A stretch of DNA of 64,000 nucleotides from Nitrosopumilus sp. (GTDB lineage Archaea; Thermoproteota; Nitrososphaeria; Nitrososphaerales; Nitrosopumilaceae), in NCBI GenBank assembly GCA_965223425.1, contig OZ245003.1, positions 1,120,001-1,184,000 on the forward strand. Direction: 5' to 3'. The translations under genes were made by a program, and so were the position numbers. Numbering within the stretch: the first letter of the stretch is position 1; every line of letters begins with the position of its first letter. Below, piece by piece: positions 1-24,234 of the stretch. Under the pieces are notes generated by a model. That model was not told where the DNA came from and made no database searches. It saw only the letters and a program-made list of their open reading frames with translations.

Positions 1-259
1 TTTTTGTGCGGTTTTTTCAGTTACACATGCATGATCTCCATTTGAGCGAATTACATGCACACGATTCTCGTTACACTGTATGTCCTCAGGCTCCGCCGTT
101 TTTGATTTGCTACAACGGGGGGGAGATAATCAGAATACGATAAGAGAGCAAAGGAGACACACAACACAAGTACGGCAAGCAGTGGCAATCCTAAAATGGA
201 TTTTCCATTCATTGAGGAATCTAAAAATTTAACTCATTAAAGCGATCCTACTGATCCGG

Positions 260-393
260 TCTTCCCAGAAGTACCAGGTTTCCTTCTGAACTGTAACCCG
301 TAATTCGTGATTCTACAGATTTTGGGCGTGTGTGATTCTTTGTAGTAGAAAGTTTCTCCTCTTGGTAATCTCTACGAAGTACTTCTGGGAAGA
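260..393. mobile_element. Putative MITE (~134 bp)
   Basis: Perfect 15-bp inverted repeat TCTTCCCAGAAGTAC (260-274) / GTACTTCTGGGAAGA (379-393); no ORF; no clear TSD. Confidence 0.5.
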
Positions 394-427
394 TTGAAAA
401 ATAAGTAAACTATTAAAGTATTATTCG

Positions 428-1075
428 TTGTCTAAACATATGTCCGATCCACAATCTGAATTAGATATTTTTAACAGAATATCAACAGAGCAAATTATTG
501 AATTGGGTAATTATTTTGATGACAGTATTTTATCCCCCTCTCCTAATTTATCTAAATTAAAGAAGATTTTAGACAAGGATTTTGAAATAAGTAGTGTTAA
601 AGAATTAATATCCATATTTTACAACTTTGCCATAAGTAAACGCAATCCAGATAAAATTTTTAAAATTATCACCACTTCAAAATTAGATGAAGACAAAAAG
701 AAAATGTTAAAAGAAATTGTTCAAAAAATTCATGATAAAATTAATTTGGATGATGTGTCTATCAGCCTAACCGCTAATTTTCTTCATACATTTGGACATG
801 CACATATTCATGGTTTTAAGACGGTCACAGAATTTAGACCAATTTCTAATGGAAGGGAGGGAATTAAAAAAATCATTCCTTCTTTAGTTGTAAGTATCAA
901 TACCCATGAATCAGATAATGGTGTTGATAATGTGATTAACTTTCAATTAACTCTAAAAGATGCTAAAAAACTAATTGAGGAATTAAATAGTGGCTCTGAT
1001 TTATTAAAAACTGAAATACAAGATTTCCGTAATAAATTTGGTGAAGATATAATTGATCGAAAATATTTGGGATGA
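428..1075 (+). CDS. Hypothetical protein, COMM-domain-like (helical N-terminus plus beta-beta-beta-alpha C-terminus)
   Basis: 215-aa ORF (ATG alternative at 440). C-terminus HIHGFKTVTEFRPI...IPSLVVSINT...VINFQLTLKDAKKLIEEL resembles the COMM pattern. ORF is confident; fold is inferred. Confidence 0.6.
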   Translation: MSKHMSDPQSELDIFNRISTEQIIELGNYFDDSILSPSPNLSKLKKILDKDFEISSVKELISIFYNFAISKRNPDKIFKIITTSKLDEDKKKMLKEIVQKIHDKINLDDVSISLTANFLHTFGHAHIHGFKTVTEFRPISNGREGIKKIIPSLVVSINTHESDNGVDNVINFQLTLKDAKKLIEELNSGSDLLKTEIQDFRNKFGEDIIDRKYLG

Positions 1076-1508
1076 GTTGGAAGAAAAAACAACATTTAAA
1101 CAAAAAAATAAAGACATTAAACCATGGGATTTGGATAAGAGAGAATTTAATTTACATGATCTGCATATTTGGATCGAGGAGGACAGTAGACAAAACTTGA
1201 ATTGTTTTTATGATTTTGCTAAGGAAAGAAATGAATTACAAAACATTTCAACATCTAATGAACCAACAGACAATGAAAACATAAAAAATAAAAATGCCTT
1301 TGAGGATTTTGTAAAAACCAATTTGGAAAATCCTCAATTTAAAAATAAGTTTGTGGCATTTGTTGATGGAGAATTTCAAAATAGTGGAGATAAAAGAAAT
1401 GCGTTAATTGAAAAAATGTATGATAAATTTGGTAATGTAGACATGTATGTAGACAAAGTCACAGACCAAAAGAAAGTTGTTCTAATTGATACTCCTGAAT
1501 TTAATTGA
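1053..1508 (+). CDS. DUF5678-like protein with N-terminal extension
   Basis: C-terminal FKNKFVAFVDGEFQNSGDKRNALIEKMYDKFGNVDMYVDKV fits DUF5678; overlaps the upstream gene by 23 nt; lies directly upstream of an aspartyl protease gene, a typical context. Confidence 0.7.
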   Translation: MIENIWDELEEKTTFKQKNKDIKPWDLDKREFNLHDLHIWIEEDSRQNLNCFYDFAKERNELQNISTSNEPTDNENIKNKNAFEDFVKTNLENPQFKNKFVAFVDGEFQNSGDKRNALIEKMYDKFGNVDMYVDKVTDQKKVVLIDTPEFN

Positions 1509-1912
1509 CATTGAAATTTAGACATAACAAGGTAGACAATCCTAGCTCTTTGGTTCTAGATCTAACTGTGTGGAACAAATTTGGAAAATCTTCCCCAGAA
1601 AAAGGAAAAATAGATACTGGTGCAAGTCATACAGTGATACCAGATTACCTTGTCAATACTTTACATCTAAAAAAGACAAGAGAAACAGTTGTAAAAACTG
1701 TGAGTGGAATGGAATCAACACATTACAATTATTTTGTCAGTATTCAAATTGGCAACATAAAGTTTGATAGATTTGAAGTGGTCGCAATGCCAAAAGAATA
1801 TGTTCTTTTAGGCAGAGATTTAATTAATTTATGGAAGTTAGAAATAGATGGAGAATTTGAGACATATTCAATAGAACCTTGGTCAACAAATCCTGATGAT
1901 GTTAAAGAGTAA
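1505..1912 (+). CDS. Retropepsin-like (clan AA) aspartyl protease
   Basis: IDTGAS catalytic motif and LLGRD motif; TTG start overlaps the upstream TGA. Confidence 0.9.
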   Translation: MTLKFRHNKVDNPSSLVLDLTVWNKFGKSSPEKGKIDTGASHTVIPDYLVNTLHLKKTRETVVKTVSGMESTHYNYFVSIQIGNIKFDRFEVVAMPKEYVLLGRDLINLWKLEIDGEFETYSIEPWSTNPDDVKE

Positions 1913-2388: not shown

Positions 2389-3463
2389 GGGGTTGTTGCC
2401 AAATTCACATCTAAGCTGCCACCACCACAATATTCTGCCTTGCTGCACACTCCAAACGGTTTAACACCTCAAGGTTCCATCCTATTGTCTTGCACAGTCC
2501 AAACCGCCTTCTTGTGGATGTCTTTCTGAACCTGCACAGCAACCGGTGACCTTCTGTCTCCTCTGCTCCAAATATTCCCTCTATCATGCCTCGTTTCTTG
2601 TAGATCTCCACGTCAAACAGTCCTGCGGCCTTTTTCCTGAACTTTTTTGTTCTGTTCACGGCATTGCCCCTCTGCTTTATGTTCGGGGTCATGCCGGCAC
2701 CAAAGACAAGCTTGCAGTTCCTATCAGAATCATACCCCCTGTCTGCATTGAACCTGCCTGCAAAGGCAATGCCTGTCTTTTTGATCTTCTTTAGCAGCGA
2801 GGCAAAGACTGTAGTGTCTGCCATCCTGTTGGATGTGATGCGGCAGGAGAGTATGACCTGCAGGCCCAGTACCGAGGCCACGTGCCATTTCAGGTATTTC
2901 TTTTGACGCTTTGCCTCCTGTTGTGCCTGTTTCTGGCCTTTTTTTTGCACTCTTTCATACCTGTCAGTGGCAACGCCGCTGCTGTCTGATGCCAGCGTGA
3001 GATCAGAGGCATCAAATCCTGCAAGGCACGATGCTGCCGTGCAGGCAATGATATCTTCAAGCCATGCAACAGGAATCTTTTGCATGAACTTGGAGACAGT
3101 AGTGTGATCAGGTACGGGTTCGTCCCACGGCAGCTTAAGCTTGGATACAAGGTTCTCCATATCCCGGTATGTGTAGTTTAGACATACCATGAGTATGCAG
3201 ATGCATGCCAGCTTGTTCCTGCTGTGAACCCGGTTGCGTCCAGGACCGGACTGTCTGTCCCGGACAGGACACGGATTTTTCACAATCAAAGAAACTATAT
3301 GGGACGTGAGAAAATCCAGTTCTTGGGTGTGGGCCTCGTGATAGTACTTCCAGTACTGATCACGTCTCTTATGATCACTCATTAGAGAACTCACATCCTC
3401 TCTGATCAATATGTGTACAAAATCACAAAATTAGATCATGGGGGTGAATTTGGCAACAACCCC
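2389..3463 (-). mobile_element. Intact IS5-family insertion sequence
   Basis: Perfect 20-bp TIR GGGGTTGTTGCCAAATTCAC (2389-2408 / 3444-3463); 9-bp TSD GGCATGACC (2380-2388, 3464-3472). Confidence 0.92.
2411..3382 (-). CDS. IS5-family DDE transposase
   Basis: VPDHTT, DSSG, KWHV, ADRGYDS and R-x-x-IE-x-x-F motifs; ATG at 3382 (open frame extends to 3409). Confidence 0.9.
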   Translation of the reverse strand: MSDHKRRDQYWKYYHEAHTQELDFLTSHIVSLIVKNPCPVRDRQSGPGRNRVHSRNKLACICILMVCLNYTYRDMENLVSKLKLPWDEPVPDHTTVSKFMQKIPVAWLEDIIACTAASCLAGFDASDLTLASDSSGVATDRYERVQKKGQKQAQQEAKRQKKYLKWHVASVLGLQVILSCRITSNRMADTTVFASLLKKIKKTGIAFAGRFNADRGYDSDRNCKLVFGAGMTPNIKQRGNAVNRTKKFRKKAAGLFDVEIYKKRGMIEGIFGAEETEGHRLLCRFRKTSTRRRFGLCKTIGWNLEVLNRLECAARQNIVVVAA

Positions 3464-4449
3464 GGCATGACCTCTTGCGGTACATGCAGAGGAGACGATG
3501 TCCCTCTGCCTCCTCTACTGTCAGTAACTAACTTTCCCTGCGCACACCTTGGGCACATGCAGAGGAGACGATGTCCCTCTGTCTCCTCTGCCCCGAAGAT
3601 CCCCTCGATGAGTTCCCTGCCTGTACGTCTCCTCGTCAAAGAGCTGCGCTGCCCGCCTCCTGTGGAACTTGCCGCGGTTTGTTGCACCCCTTCTCTGCTT
3701 TTGATGTGTAGGGGATCATTCTCATCCCAAAGACCGTCTTGCAGTTCTTGCCAGAGTCGTATCTCATGTCAGCGCACAGTACGGAACCCACCAGCGGCAT
3801 GATTCGTCGACGCACATGCGCGCAGTCTGGGCAAGTATCAGATCCATCCATCCTGTCCTGATGCGCTGAAGGTACCTGGCAATCGTGGTGTGGTCAGGCA
3901 CCGGCTTCCTCCAAGGCAGGTCCCGGTGCGGCACCAGGTTCTGCATGTACCGGTACGTGGCATTCAGCATGACTGTCAGCATGCACACGCAATGCATCTT
4001 GGCATCAGAGCGGACTGCCTTGCGCCCCCCGGTGTTGTTTCTTGCCGGCGGGGAGGGGAGGAGGAGGAGGGGTTGTTTTTGATCAAAAAACTAATTTGTC
4101 TGTCAGGAATCTTAGTTCCTGTGTGTGCCAGATGGTAACTTTTCCAGTAACCATCTTTTCGTTTATTCATTGAAGGGGCACACACACTCCTGATCCAAAT
4201 GCGGCGCTGTCAAAAAGACGTAATTTGGCACTCAGAGGGAATTACGCAACAACTTCTGATCATTGGCCAATTCAAAATACGTGGTAGGTTTTAGGTGTGT
4301 TGTGCAACAATAGGAGGAGGAGGGAAGTGAACTACTTTTAGGATCCCACACATCTGAAGATCGTGCAATATCTTAATGAATGGTGGATATAGTTGATCTC
4401 TTCAAAAGGGAGGGCATAAATTCTAGATTCTAAATAAAAAAATGAAACT

Positions 4450-5202
4450 ATGAGTGGTGAAACTGAAAGTACTTTCTCAAACTTTGGTGTTTATGTCATT
4501 AGTGAGGATCTTGAACTATCGCTTCCCAACACAACGATCAAAATTCAACGAATAGGGGAAAATGCTTTTTCATATTTTAGAAAAGACTCTGAAGGAAAAA
4601 TTGTAGAAAAAATGATTCCTGCAAAATCAAATGAAATCCAAATTGAGATGGCCCCTATACGGCCATTAAATCATCCAGCCAGACGAACTGGTTATGTTTT
4701 TTTGAAATTTGATAAAGAAATCTATCTTAGGGAGAATTCTGCTGCAAGTATTTTTGTTCATTGTCCAATTGAGGTTGGAATTTTTTTAATTGATGGATCT
4801 AATCGCGAATCTTTGGACTGGGTTACCTGTAACCCCATAAATTCTAGATTTGGCCTTTATGGCTCTCCTGACACCGGCACATTATGCAAATATGCCCAAG
4901 TATCATTGGCTACTGACTACAGTGACTCTGTTCCATATGTTGAAGGTGTCATGAAAATTATTATTGAAAATACTCTAAAAACTGGCCAAACAGTCAGTAA
5001 AGTGATTTTTCCAATCACTGACAACTCACTATATTATGAAGAATCAAAAACAATAGTTGATGGTATCAAAGTTACTCTTCGAAAGAGAGCAGCAGTCAGT
5101 ATTGCAGATATCAAAACTGATCCTGTTGATACGGACTGGACTAAATCCCCTACATGGGAAGACACCACTGTTAGTACCGCCATGGAGATGAGATTAGAAT
5201 AA
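4450..5202 (+). CDS. DUF432-domain protein
   Basis: PIEVGIF and LYGSPDTGTLCKY motifs; coupled to mscS as commonly seen in archaea. Confidence 0.8.
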   Translation: MSGETESTFSNFGVYVISEDLELSLPNTTIKIQRIGENAFSYFRKDSEGKIVEKMIPAKSNEIQIEMAPIRPLNHPARRTGYVFLKFDKEIYLRENSAASIFVHCPIEVGIFLIDGSNRESLDWVTCNPINSRFGLYGSPDTGTLCKYAQVSLATDYSDSVPYVEGVMKIIIENTLKTGQTVSKVIFPITDNSLYYEESKTIVDGIKVTLRKRAAVSIADIKTDPVDTDWTKSPTWEDTTVSTAMEMRLE

Positions 5203-21729: not shown

Positions 21730-22134
21730 ATGAAAGATCCTCAAATTGCATATAAAGAAAGATTAGAGAATATTTTGAAGCTGACTACTGATGAACAGTA
21801 TATGAGTTGTTTCCAAATAACTAGAAATCTTACAAATTTTAGCTGGACGATGGAATTGAAAGATGAAGTATTCATAAGTGAAGTGCTTGAAGCACTTTTT
21901 AAACAGATGGGAAATTTAATTGAGACATATAAAATACCACAAGAAATTAGAGAAGACATAAAAATACAATTATCAGTACTCATGAAAAAATTAATTGAAA
22001 CATATCCTAAAACCAGTCCATCCGATTTATATGAATCATTAAAAGAATTGAGATATGCAGCTACTTACCATCAATTTAATGTATGGCAAAAATATTCAGA
22101 AAAATATCCTGGTGGATTAGGAATGAATGAATAA
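21730..22134 (+). CDS. Hypothetical helical protein
   Basis: 134-aa AT-rich ORF ending 2 nt before the next gene. Confidence 0.75.
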   Translation: MKDPQIAYKERLENILKLTTDEQYMSCFQITRNLTNFSWTMELKDEVFISEVLEALFKQMGNLIETYKIPQEIREDIKIQLSVLMKKLIETYPKTSPSDLYESLKELRYAATYHQFNVWQKYSEKYPGGLGMNE

Positions 22135-22136
22135 TT

Positions 22137-22442
22137 ATGACAACCATTTTGGAAACTAAAAAGAAAGAGAATAAACAGGAAATGCAAAATGCTTGGATAG
22201 AATTCGTAGAAACTAATCAAAAAAGTCCAGAGGAAGCACATAGAATTATCATATTCACAATGCACAAACAACAGAAAGTTATTGATCGTTTATTACAAGA
22301 CAACAAAACTTTATGGAAACAGCTTCAAAAATATAAAACAACTCAAGAATTAATTTCGGAAGGACAACCACAAAGTTCAACATATAGAATCGTTAAAAAA
22401 ATTTGGGATAATAAAGAAGATGAGTTCTGGGACACTTTTTGA
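22137..22442 (+). CDS. Putative antitoxin (DUF2281-like C-terminal W..EDE.W motif)
   Basis: KKIWDNKEDEFWDTF tail; overlaps the toxin start by 23 nt. Confidence 0.7.
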   Translation: MTTILETKKKENKQEMQNAWIEFVETNQKSPEEAHRIIIFTMHKQQKVIDRLLQDNKTLWKQLQKYKTTQELISEGQPQSSTYRIVKKIWDNKEDEFWDTF

Positions 22443-22773
22443 ACCACAAGAGATTATTTTAACAGAGATAGTTTTTCCTAATCAACAACTTAAAAAAAGA
22501 CCTGTATTGGTGATTTCAGAATTTTCCAAAAACACATCCGAAAATATTTTTGTTTGCTTACCAATAACTTCATCTCTTTATGATGATCCATTTGCAATTA
22601 AAATTAATAATTCAGATACTCAAGAAGGATTTTTTCCTAAACCAAGTCAAGTTTTATGCCAATACTATTTTACAGAATTAAAAAGTGACATAGATAGAAA
22701 AATAGGGAAAATAACCCCACAATTTTATCAAAAAGTAAAGACAAAGATTCGTACTGAAATTTTAGATGTTTGA
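22420..22773 (+). CDS. PemK/MazF-family endoribonuclease toxin
   Basis: FP...KKRPVLVIS, CLPITS, RKIGKI. Confidence 0.9.
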   Translation: MSSGTLFEPQEIILTEIVFPNQQLKKRPVLVISEFSKNTSENIFVCLPITSSLYDDPFAIKINNSDTQEGFFPKPSQVLCQYYFTELKSDIDRKIGKITPQFYQKVKTKIRTEILDV

Positions 22774-23235: not shown

Positions 23236-24234
23236 ATGGCAAAAACGTGGAAAGATAACGATATCAGCCTTGACTCAATTAAGGATCAAACAATTGCCGT
23301 ACTAGGCTATGGAATCCAAGGTGATGCGCAAGCCAACAACATGAAAGACTCTGGCTTAAATGTGATAATTGGTCTTAAAGAAGGAGGCAACAGCTGGAAA
23401 AAGGCATCAGCAGACGGTCACAAAGTGATGTCAGTTGCAGATGCAACCAAACAAGCAGACATTATCCACGTATTGATCCCCGACATGATTCAAGGCCAGG
23501 TATACAAGGATGAAATCAGACCAAATCTTTCTGAAGGACAAGCACTGTCATTTTCTCACGCAGCTGCAATATACTGGAAATGGATTGAAGCGCCAAGCAA
23601 TGTTGATCTTATCATGGTTGCCCCAAAAGGACCCGGTTCTAAAGTTAGAGAAACATATCTTGACAGTTTTGGAACTCCTTCAATTGTTGCAGTTGAGCAA
23701 GACTTTACGGGAAAAGCTTGGGATAGGACGCTGGGAATTGCAAAAGCAATTGGAAGCGCAAGAGCTGGATTGATTCAAACTACTTTCAAAGAGGAAGTGG
23801 AAACTGATTGGTTCGGCGAACAGGCAGACCTCTGTGGCGGTGCAGCTTCCATGGTAACAAACGCATTTGAAACCCTAGTTGAAGCAGGATACCAACCAGA
23901 AATAGCATATTTTGAAGTCTTGCATGAACTCAAACTCATTGTAGATATGATTCAAAGATATGGAATTAATGGAATGTGGAGACGCGTTAGCGAAACTGCC
24001 AGATATGGGGGGCTAACTCGCGGTCCAATGGTTATGGATGCCGCAAGCAAAGGGAACATGAAAAAAGTTCTAACCATGATTCAAGATGGGACATTCAACA
24101 AAGAGTGGATCTCTGAATATCAGAAAAGCGGCAAAGACGCATTTGATAAATACATGAAACAGTATGACGAACACCAAATTGAAAAAGTTGGCAAAGAAAT
24201 GCGTAAGATGATGTGGCCTGATTCCACAGAATAG
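23236..24234 (+). CDS. ilvC: Ketol-acid reductoisomerase
   Basis: GYGIQGDAQA, APKGPG, ETDWFGEQ, SETARYG. Confidence 0.98.
   Translation: MAKTWKDNDISLDSIKDQTIAVLGYGIQGDAQANNMKDSGLNVIIGLKEGGNSWKKASADGHKVMSVADATKQADIIHVLIPDMIQGQVYKDEIRPNLSEGQALSFSHAAAIYWKWIEAPSNVDLIMVAPKGPGSKVRETYLDSFGTPSIVAVEQDFTGKAWDRTLGIAKAIGSARAGLIQTTFKEEVETDWFGEQADLCGGAASMVTNAFETLVEAGYQPEIAYFEVLHELKLIVDMIQRYGINGMWRRVSETARYGGLTRGPMVMDAASKGNMKKVLTMIQDGTFNKEWISEYQKSGKDAFDKYMKQYDEHQIEKVGKEMRKMMWPDSTE

Follow-up and report, generated by a model that had tools for sequence, protein, structure and literature searches.

Within a 64,000-nucleotide (nt) stretch of a Nitrosopumilus sp. genome (assembly GCA_965223425.1, contig OZ245003.1, positions 1,120,001 to 1,184,000; hereafter the window), we identified three overlapping genes that look like a mobile cassette. 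The first encodes a COMMD-like protein (gene 1), the second a DUF5678-like protein with a long N-terminal arm (gene 2), and the third a retropepsin-like aspartic protease (gene 3). We propose that they form a mobile three-gene cassette whose products act as one complex, in which a ring of COMMD-like subunits carries DUF5678 adaptors that control the protease, and we give this proposal about an even chance of being right. The COMMD-like family has been published and the DUF5678/retropepsin pair is catalogued but unstudied; our literature search found no paper on their union.

The predicted structure of gene 1 is COMMD-like

The initial annotation had suggested a COMM-like fold for gene 1 on the basis of its length and its pattern of strands, and the predicted structure bears this out, since COMMD chains top two different searches of the PDB. 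The AlphaFold2 (AF2) model, made from an alignment of 11 sequences (mean predicted local distance difference test score, pLDDT, 68), has an N-terminal domain of six helices (residues 4-100, pLDDT 71-93), and a C-terminal part with three strands (residues 122-136, 142-157 and 162-170) and a long helix (172-200). Foldseek returned 16 PDB matches at E <= 0.001, and those listed were COMMD or COMMD-like chains throughout, both human chains of the CCC/Commander assembly and the bacterial COMMD-like structures 9q6c and 9q6a. The best matches were 8f2r, 8p0w, 9q6c and 9q6a (E 4e-6 to 6e-5), with isolated COMM domains ranking next (8p0w_F: TMt 0.71, root-mean-square deviation, rmsd, 2.7). VIA-align, which is independent of Foldseek and was run against 48,161 chains, also placed COMMD or COMMD-like chains at ranks 1-6. 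Four of them aligned over the full length (model residues 1-193; 8f2r_D Z 10.5, 8p0w_J 8.4, 8f2u_H 8.3, 9q6a_A 7.3) and two were COMM-domain-only chains (8esd_S Z 6.7, rmsd 2.8 over 70 residues; 6bp6_B Z 6.4). The first unrelated chain had Z 5.2, and the N-domain of COMMD1 (2h2m) had Z 3.8.

Sequence profiles give fainter signals of the same kind. Gene 1 itself has a sub-threshold match to the Pfam COMM_domain (PF07258; E 0.05, with 14.1 bits where the cut-off is 22.4). Searching 1.8 billion representatives with a profile yielded 65 relatives, and among the 39 that are full-length COMM_domain was the commonest weak Pfam match (8/39, best E 0.0047), with COMM_HN weakly matched in three. When the family profile was compared with PDB sequences, COMMD3 and COMMD2 aligned in register, at E-values of just 0.23-0.31. 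A search of PDB chains with the single sequence gave a helical match that we discarded as chance (E 0.51). Two distant relatives of about 260 amino acids (aa), P0079 and P0082, end in a different extension, which is conserved, about 90 aa long and without a Pfam match.

Several of these results weigh against the assignment. Gene 1 has no match at the curated thresholds of Pfam or NCBIfam, searches of NCBIfam and PADLOC gave nothing beyond chance, and the COMM-like domain has a pLDDT of just 51-67 in the monomer model. According to Liu et al. (Nat Commun 2026; PMC13392464), prokaryotic COMMD-like proteins escape sequence methods; a Pfam match therefore does not define the prokaryotic group. The same source describes several such proteins with few or no tryptophans, and the lack of the COMM tryptophan that had been noted in gene 1 is thus not disqualifying. 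Judged by its modelled fold, gene 1 is a prokaryotic COMMD-like protein, with both the HN and the COMM features present.

The three genes travel together, and natural fusions join COMMD-like and DUF5678-like parts

Translation of the three genes is coupled, and they travel as a unit. Their start/stop overlaps are conserved, and the linkage of gene 1 homologs to the DUF5678/protease pair, on which the initial annotation had staked its reading, recurs in other genomes: gene 2- and gene 3-like sequence lies behind the gene 1 relative in eight of the nine other loci that have one (L numbers designate loci and P numbers proteins). All five loci from GTDB genomes, which are metagenome-assembled genomes (MAGs) of Nitrosopumilus or Nitrosopumilaceae (L003-L007), have both. 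A metagenome scan with the 11-sequence alignment returned two loci (L040 and L041), both with the full triplet, in which gene 1 identity is 40% and 29%, and a scan of 401 genomes of the phylum added a decayed triplet (L043). Decay is also seen in L006 and L007, where genes 1 and 2 have become fused through an in-frame deletion; of gene 3, just 44 residues match in L007.

The remaining locus (L042), from the same scan of 401 genomes, has a gene 1 relative at 34% identity; the next gene overlaps it by 4 nt, encodes 197 aa and is unrelated. This weighs against our proposal, because it means that the COMMD-like gene is not tied to a protease in every case, and it suggests that COMMD-like genes can exchange the tail genes that follow them. 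At this locus (L042:263-1269, minus strand) the tail consists of the 197-aa gene and then a 100-aa gene, neither of which matches Pfam; upstream there is an rve-type transposase.

Alternatively, the COMMD-like gene might have nothing to do with the genes behind it, these being an ordinary DUF5678/retropepsin pair placed there by accident. Such a chance neighbourhood would fit both the L042 locus and the wide occurrence of DUF5678/protease pairs without a COMMD-like gene. Yet the triplet persists down to the lowest gene 1 identity given above with its overlaps conserved, the long-armed form of gene 2 was seen only in these triplets, and COMMD-like and DUF5678-like domains are fused in two architectures. 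We therefore hold chance neighbourhood to be very improbable and close to refuted.

In the first of these architectures, P0063 (363 aa), a full-length COMMD-like part (residues 1-204, hhalign probability 99.5%) is followed by a Pro/Ser-rich linker and a DUF5678-like domain (residues 284-359, 99.3%). In the second, P0096 and P0070, the COMM helix of the COMMD-like part (residues 1-187, 99.8%) joins the DUF5678-like domain (residues 206-281, 99.2%) almost directly; P0096 has 286 aa and lies on a 1.08-Mb contig, and P0070 is its partial cluster mate. A further open reading frame (ORF), P0068 (336 aa), unites an HN part, a DUF5678-like domain and the protease. The fusions also have features that count against our proposal, as they are predicted metagenome proteins known from one or two sequences each, and those in P0012, P0020 and P0068 are clearly deletion products without a COMM domain. 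Taken together, fusions and coupling lead us to argue that the three proteins form one complex.

A divergent DUF5678 domain and a retropepsin-like protease

The AF2 model of gene 2 has two very different halves. Residues 1-71 have a pLDDT below 50, whereas residues 74-148 form a helix, a hairpin, a helix and two strands at pLDDT 79-86. The ratio of nonsynonymous to synonymous substitution rates (dN/dS) follows the same division, at 0.41-1.29 in the N-terminal half and 0.05-0.16 in the C-terminal half. Ordinary DUF5678 proteins mostly have 65-93 aa and no such N-terminal extension. The C-terminus of the gene 2 family is an invariant [DE][TS]PE, and ordinary DUF5678 proteins have conserved hydrophobic ends (L-I/L-L).

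The initial annotation had called this protein DUF5678-like. The label stands at the level of profile-profile and fold comparisons, but it does not extend to the Pfam model itself. Aligned by hhalign with a reference set of 26 Pfam-positive proteins from genomes of the same class, the gene 2 family gave a probability of 91% (E 1.1e-6) over 56 columns (residues 85-140); with one DUF5678 protein of the same genome the result was E 0.0013 and a probability of 18.7%. In a fold search of BFVD, ranks 2 and 4 were DUF5678 proteins (TMt 0.62, rmsd 2.5 over 70 residues), and the three nearest ESM Atlas clusters, to be taken as leads only, carry PF18929 (scores 0.85-0.88). We rejected the best PDB folds as noise (Foldseek E 0.51; VIA-align Z 4.6, to actin-depolymerising factors). 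Against the assignment stand the absence of any match to Pfam DUF5678 (PF18929) at E <= 10 in the 18 family members, the absence of any PADLOC match in the same 18, and an NCBIfam search that gave nothing beyond chance. On the modelled fold and the profile alignments, the C-terminal domain of gene 2 is a divergent DUF5678.

The same genome has two ordinary DUF5678 genes, of 72 and 54 aa (L008, G000:C1:245979-246113; L009, G000:C1:2381270-2381362), and no protease lies near either of them. One adjoins an ORF weakly similar to RusA (E 5.4e-5) and the other a long ORF that we take to resemble a transposase.

Gene 3 has all the features of its class, and we classify it from its sequence as a single-domain retropepsin-like aspartic protease. 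It matches the Pfam families Asp_protease_2 (E 1.4e-11; 45.3 bits for a threshold of 24.3), gag-asp_proteas (6.8e-10) and RVP (1.9e-7), and it is the sole match to PF13650 in the genome. The catalytic D37-T-G-A lies at 1613-1624 and an LLGRD motif at residues 101-105; across 12 aligned sequences D37, G39 and T43 do not vary, and G103 and R104 hardly do. Retropepsins are one-domain enzymes that are active only as homodimers. Membership of NCBIfam TIGR03698 (clan_AA_DTGF) was rejected, at 28.6 bits for a cut-off of 57.35.

The kinship with viral enzymes raises the possibility that the cassette is what is left of a virus or retroelement, namely a gag-pro-like protease together with structural proteins. 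The RVP match, a match to Spuma_A9PTase (E 0.001) and the DUF5678 folds found in giant-virus proteomes (BFVD) would fit such an origin. But no reverse transcriptase, integrase or capsid gene stands beside the cassette in any locus, and no tRNA gene was found in the first 12 kb of the window. We regard a viral ancestry of this kind as a long shot.

Organization and coding status of the locus

The description of the locus as three overlapping, AT-rich genes agrees with our data: all three ORFs lie on the plus strand (Table 1), in the stretch of lowest GC content of the window. The GC content of 428-1912 is 0.288, compared with 0.390 for the whole window, and sliding windows of 1485 nt (626 in all) include just one that is equally low, which itself overlaps the cassette. 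In close relatives, gene 1 starts at the position of the ATG at 440. A CGA codon replaces the relatives' gene 1 stop codon in this copy and adds five codons; the overlap with gene 2 is 8 nt in four relatives, compared with 23 nt here. The overlap of genes 2 and 3 (TTGA) measures 4 nt, and most relatives have the same. Compared pairwise with three relatives, gene 1 has a dN/dS of 0.17-0.38, gene 2 of 0.12-0.30 and gene 3 of 0.08-0.24; some of the dS values behind these ratios are saturated. Their substitution pattern identifies all three as real genes under purifying selection. A scan with a sigma-70 model, which is unsuited to an archaeon, gave 10 promoter sites for 10.4 expected, and no terminator.

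Table 1. Coordinates of the cassette, its protein domains and the adjoining mobile elements (nucleotide positions in the window unless residues are given)
Feature	Position	Strand	Description
Gene 1	440-1075	+	COMMD-like protein, 211 aa; alternative TTG start at 428
Gene 1 domains	helical HN-like, residues 4-100; COMM-like, residues 122-200	+	Predicted from the AF2 model
Gene 2	1053-1508	+	151 aa, TTG start
Gene 2 N-terminal extension	1053-1265	+	Residues 1-71, predicted disordered, fast-evolving
Gene 2 C-terminal domain	1266-1508	+	Residues 72-151, divergent DUF5678-like fold (modelled)
Gene 3	1505-1912	+	Retropepsin-like aspartic protease, 135 aa, TTG start
MITE copy	~259-398		15-nt terminal inverted repeats at 260-274 and 379-393, directly 5' of the cassette
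IS5/IS4-family transposase ORF	2411-3409	-	332 aa, DDE_Tnp_1 E 8e-10

Two other regions of the window may be mentioned. The first gene of ordinary GC content past the insertion sequence (IS) fragments encodes a DUF432 protein (4450-5202, plus strand; Pfam E 1.1e-28). A second low-GC block (about 30% GC) lies at 21730-22773 on the plus strand, with three closely spaced genes of 134, 101 and 117 aa, and directly precedes a 332-aa gene at 23236-24234. The third protein of the block has a motif that is, we presume, reminiscent of MazF/PemK-type toxins.

A probably mobile and patchily distributed element

The cassette lies among mobile elements. The repeat in front of it, described initially as resembling a miniature inverted-repeat transposable element (MITE), was corroborated: its 15-nt terminal inverted repeats are perfect (I2, 100% complementary), and the same genome holds 15 further matches at 81-96% identity. 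The IS5 debris reported behind the cassette turned out to be only part of the picture. Fragments of the element are indeed present, at about 3480-3610 of the window, but the copy that spans about 2413-3464 contains the 332-aa transposase ORF of Table 1, and a second, direct copy with its own ORFs lies just upstream of the window (L053, 1783-2832). The two copies share the direct repeats D1, D2 and D4, with segments 82-94% identical and a spacing of about 3630 nt. Since they flank it on both sides, MITE and cassette are bracketed like the passenger of a composite transposon.

Elsewhere the flanks vary, and include transposases, HicA (near L004), ParB_N and a helicase. Transposases adjoin the gene 1 relatives of L003, L040 and L042. 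In different genomes, IS240/rve-type transposases (L003:3089-4234, L040:750-1889 and L021:2137-3099), of which two have a SWIM zinc finger, were observed next to two triplets (L003 and L040) and to the DUF5678/protease pair of L021. The cassette has a lower GC content than its locus in each of the five genome loci. Carriers of gene 1 are few, with three of the 401 genomes of the phylum, including that of the window, and all in one family; it was absent from all 60 close relatives that were scanned. Two pattern scans of IMG/VR contigs confirmed no relative of the gene 1 or gene 2 families.

The DUF5678/retropepsin pair without a COMMD-like gene

A recurrent prokaryotic pair of DUF5678 and a clan-AA protease had been invoked as established in the initial annotation, and we could recover it. 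Of 151 genomes of the class, 28 contain PF18929. Our neighbourhood scan covered 103 of 108 ORFs of at least 85 aa and 28 of 30 DUF5678 loci (L018 was among those left out). A Pfam aspartyl protease lies directly downstream on the same strand in 14 of these 28 loci, and about 1 kb downstream in one more (L016). Other neighbours include PIN, VapB, MazE, PemK and transposases. Full-text literature searches found no paper on the pair.

Gene 3 matches four models of PDC-M08B (best E 9.2e-6), a component of the PADLOC candidate defence system PDC-M08. That PDC-M08 is the DUF5678/protease pair is not supported: genes 1 and 2 match no PDC-M08 model, and the 26 DUF5678 proteins also gave no match to PDC-M08A or another partner model. 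Full-text searches found no paper on PDC-M08.

The N-terminus is extended in three DUF5678 proteins that have about 125 aa (L027:1306-1686, L033:1414-1788 and L034:199-576). In two of the three the extension resembles, below threshold, a ribbon-helix-helix domain (RHH_10 E 0.019; RHH_1 E 0.012). The architecture is antitoxin-like, and no Pfam-detectable protease lies behind these genes.

How the cassette may work

If our proposal is right, the COMMD-like ring would carry several copies of the DUF5678 domain, attached by the arm of gene 2 or, in the natural fusions, by a covalent link. Each DUF5678 domain would bind one protease monomer, by analogy with what we suppose for the two-gene DUF5678/retropepsin cassette. 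The ring would thus set the local concentration of protease, and this might decide whether monomers dimerise and cut. The most speculative step is that the cassette may be a selfish or conflict module, toxin-antitoxin-like or antiviral, with the protease as effector and the DUF5678 protein as its keeper. Such a role is suggested by mobility, patchy spread, decay and neighbouring genes; the match of gene 3 to PDC-M08B and the small retropepsin proteins of type III CRISPR loci point the same way.

The same linkage and fusions could also be explained by a dedicated processing system. There, the protease would have gene 2 as its substrate or pro-protein and would cut the variable N-terminal arm or the conserved C-terminal tail, and the COMMD-like ring would be matured or decorated, in a cellular function such as the assembly of a ring-shaped complex. 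The DUF5678-like domain right before the protease in P0068 recalls retroviral polyproteins, and the invariant end of gene 2, like the conserved hydrophobic ends of ordinary DUF5678 proteins, would make sense under processing. Yet a housekeeping role fits poorly with carriage by three of 401 genomes, IS flanks, low GC content and frequent decay, and no substrate cleavage site was identified. We consider processing unlikely, in each of these respects (gene 2 as substrate, the part of it that is cut, and the cellular function), while giving it clearly more weight than chance neighbourhood or a viral remnant.

A broader version of our proposal of a ring that controls the protease is that prokaryotic COMMD-like rings are general oligomerisation platforms that head mobile cassettes with exchangeable effectors, the present one being a ring-gated protease for suicide or defence. 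The ring would display 8-10 DUF5678 adaptors, each holding a retropepsin monomer. A trigger, such as the fast-evolving arm being lost or cleaved when a virus infects or the cell is under stress, would allow protease dimers to form and to cut cellular or viral targets. We put this forward as a bold conjecture, somewhat less probable even than processing. If true, it would also suggest that the COMMD fold originally served as a scaffold for extended partner peptides.

Whichever reading holds, the cassette provides concrete and conserved partner candidates for prokaryotic COMMD-like proteins, and a handle on the widespread and unstudied DUF5678/retropepsin pair. The fusions of COMMD-like protein and adaptor, together with the P0068 ORF, make a ring-plus-protease complex directly expressible and testable.

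Comparison with known systems

The closest relatives of gene 1 in the literature are the prokaryotic COMMD-like proteins of Liu et al. (PMC13392464), which were found by fold only, at less than 20% identity. In the solved ones, obligate dimers assemble into rings of 8 or 10 subunits, and the ring fold is said there to predate eukaryotes. Their function is stated as unknown in the article, which reports no predicted partner among the neighbouring genes; in Myxococcota, the genes have secretion-system neighbours. Gene 1 resembles these proteins (9q6a and 9q6c, from a Flavobacteriaceae bacterium) in its length of about 210 aa, its helical N-domain, three strands and long helix, its identity of 9-16% to eukaryotic COMMDs in structural alignments and its occurrence as a single gene per genome. 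It differs in heading a conserved DUF5678-like/retropepsin cassette, and its own ring is a prediction. The words protease, peptidase and retropepsin do not occur in the text of the article (PMC13392464). The archaea named in it are Methanobacteriota, Halobacteriales, Thermococcus and Asgard, whereas the carriers found here are Nitrosopumilus and Nitrosopumilaceae MAGs; in a supplementary sheet that gives accessions and taxids only, neither Nitrosopumilus-type names nor protease or DUF5678 had a match.

The two-gene DUF5678 (PF18929)/retropepsin (PF13650/PF13975) cassette has the same gene order, small overlaps and DUF5678 fold, and its proteases share the D-T/S-G-A and G-R-D/N motifs with gene 3. 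In the cassette of the window, gene 2 is twice as long, owing to an N-terminal arm of about 70 aa, and too divergent for Pfam, and a COMMD-like gene has been added in front.

Gene 3 is like retroviral and cellular retropepsins (HIV-1 and spumavirus proteases, for example) in consisting of a single lobe, some 100-135 aa long, that has to dimerise. Its best PDB sequence matches, although weak (E 0.058-0.083), are foamy-virus proteases. Among the cellular enzymes of this type (MEROPS clan AA) are Ddi1 and Rickettsia APRc. In contrast to the retroviral enzymes, gene 3 stands alone, outside any Gag-Pol polyprotein and with no reverse transcriptase or integrase nearby. Small retropepsin proteins are also listed at type III CRISPR loci of Sulfolobales (PMC3973734).

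With type II toxin-antitoxin modules the cassette shares a small upstream gene that overlaps the gene of an enzyme, as well as its mobility, patchy spread and frequent decay; PIN/VapB, MazE, PemK and HicA genes occur in the neighbourhoods. It differs in having three genes and a ring-type scaffold, and the likeness is one of context. We know of no protease of gene 3's family that is an established toxin. The terms aspartic and aspartyl protease do not occur in Makarova et al. 2009 (PMC2701414).

Finally, the eukaryotic Commander CCC complex, a COMMD1-10 ring with CCDC22/CCDC93, offers a parallel for the proposed assembly, in which the disordered arm of gene 2 would act as the extended partner. 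Healy et al. in 2023 reportedly described the COMMD ring as a platform to which partner proteins bind by their extended parts. The cassette would differ from the Commander CCC in that its ring would be a homo-oligomer of the product of one gene, with unrelated partners and no trafficking machinery.

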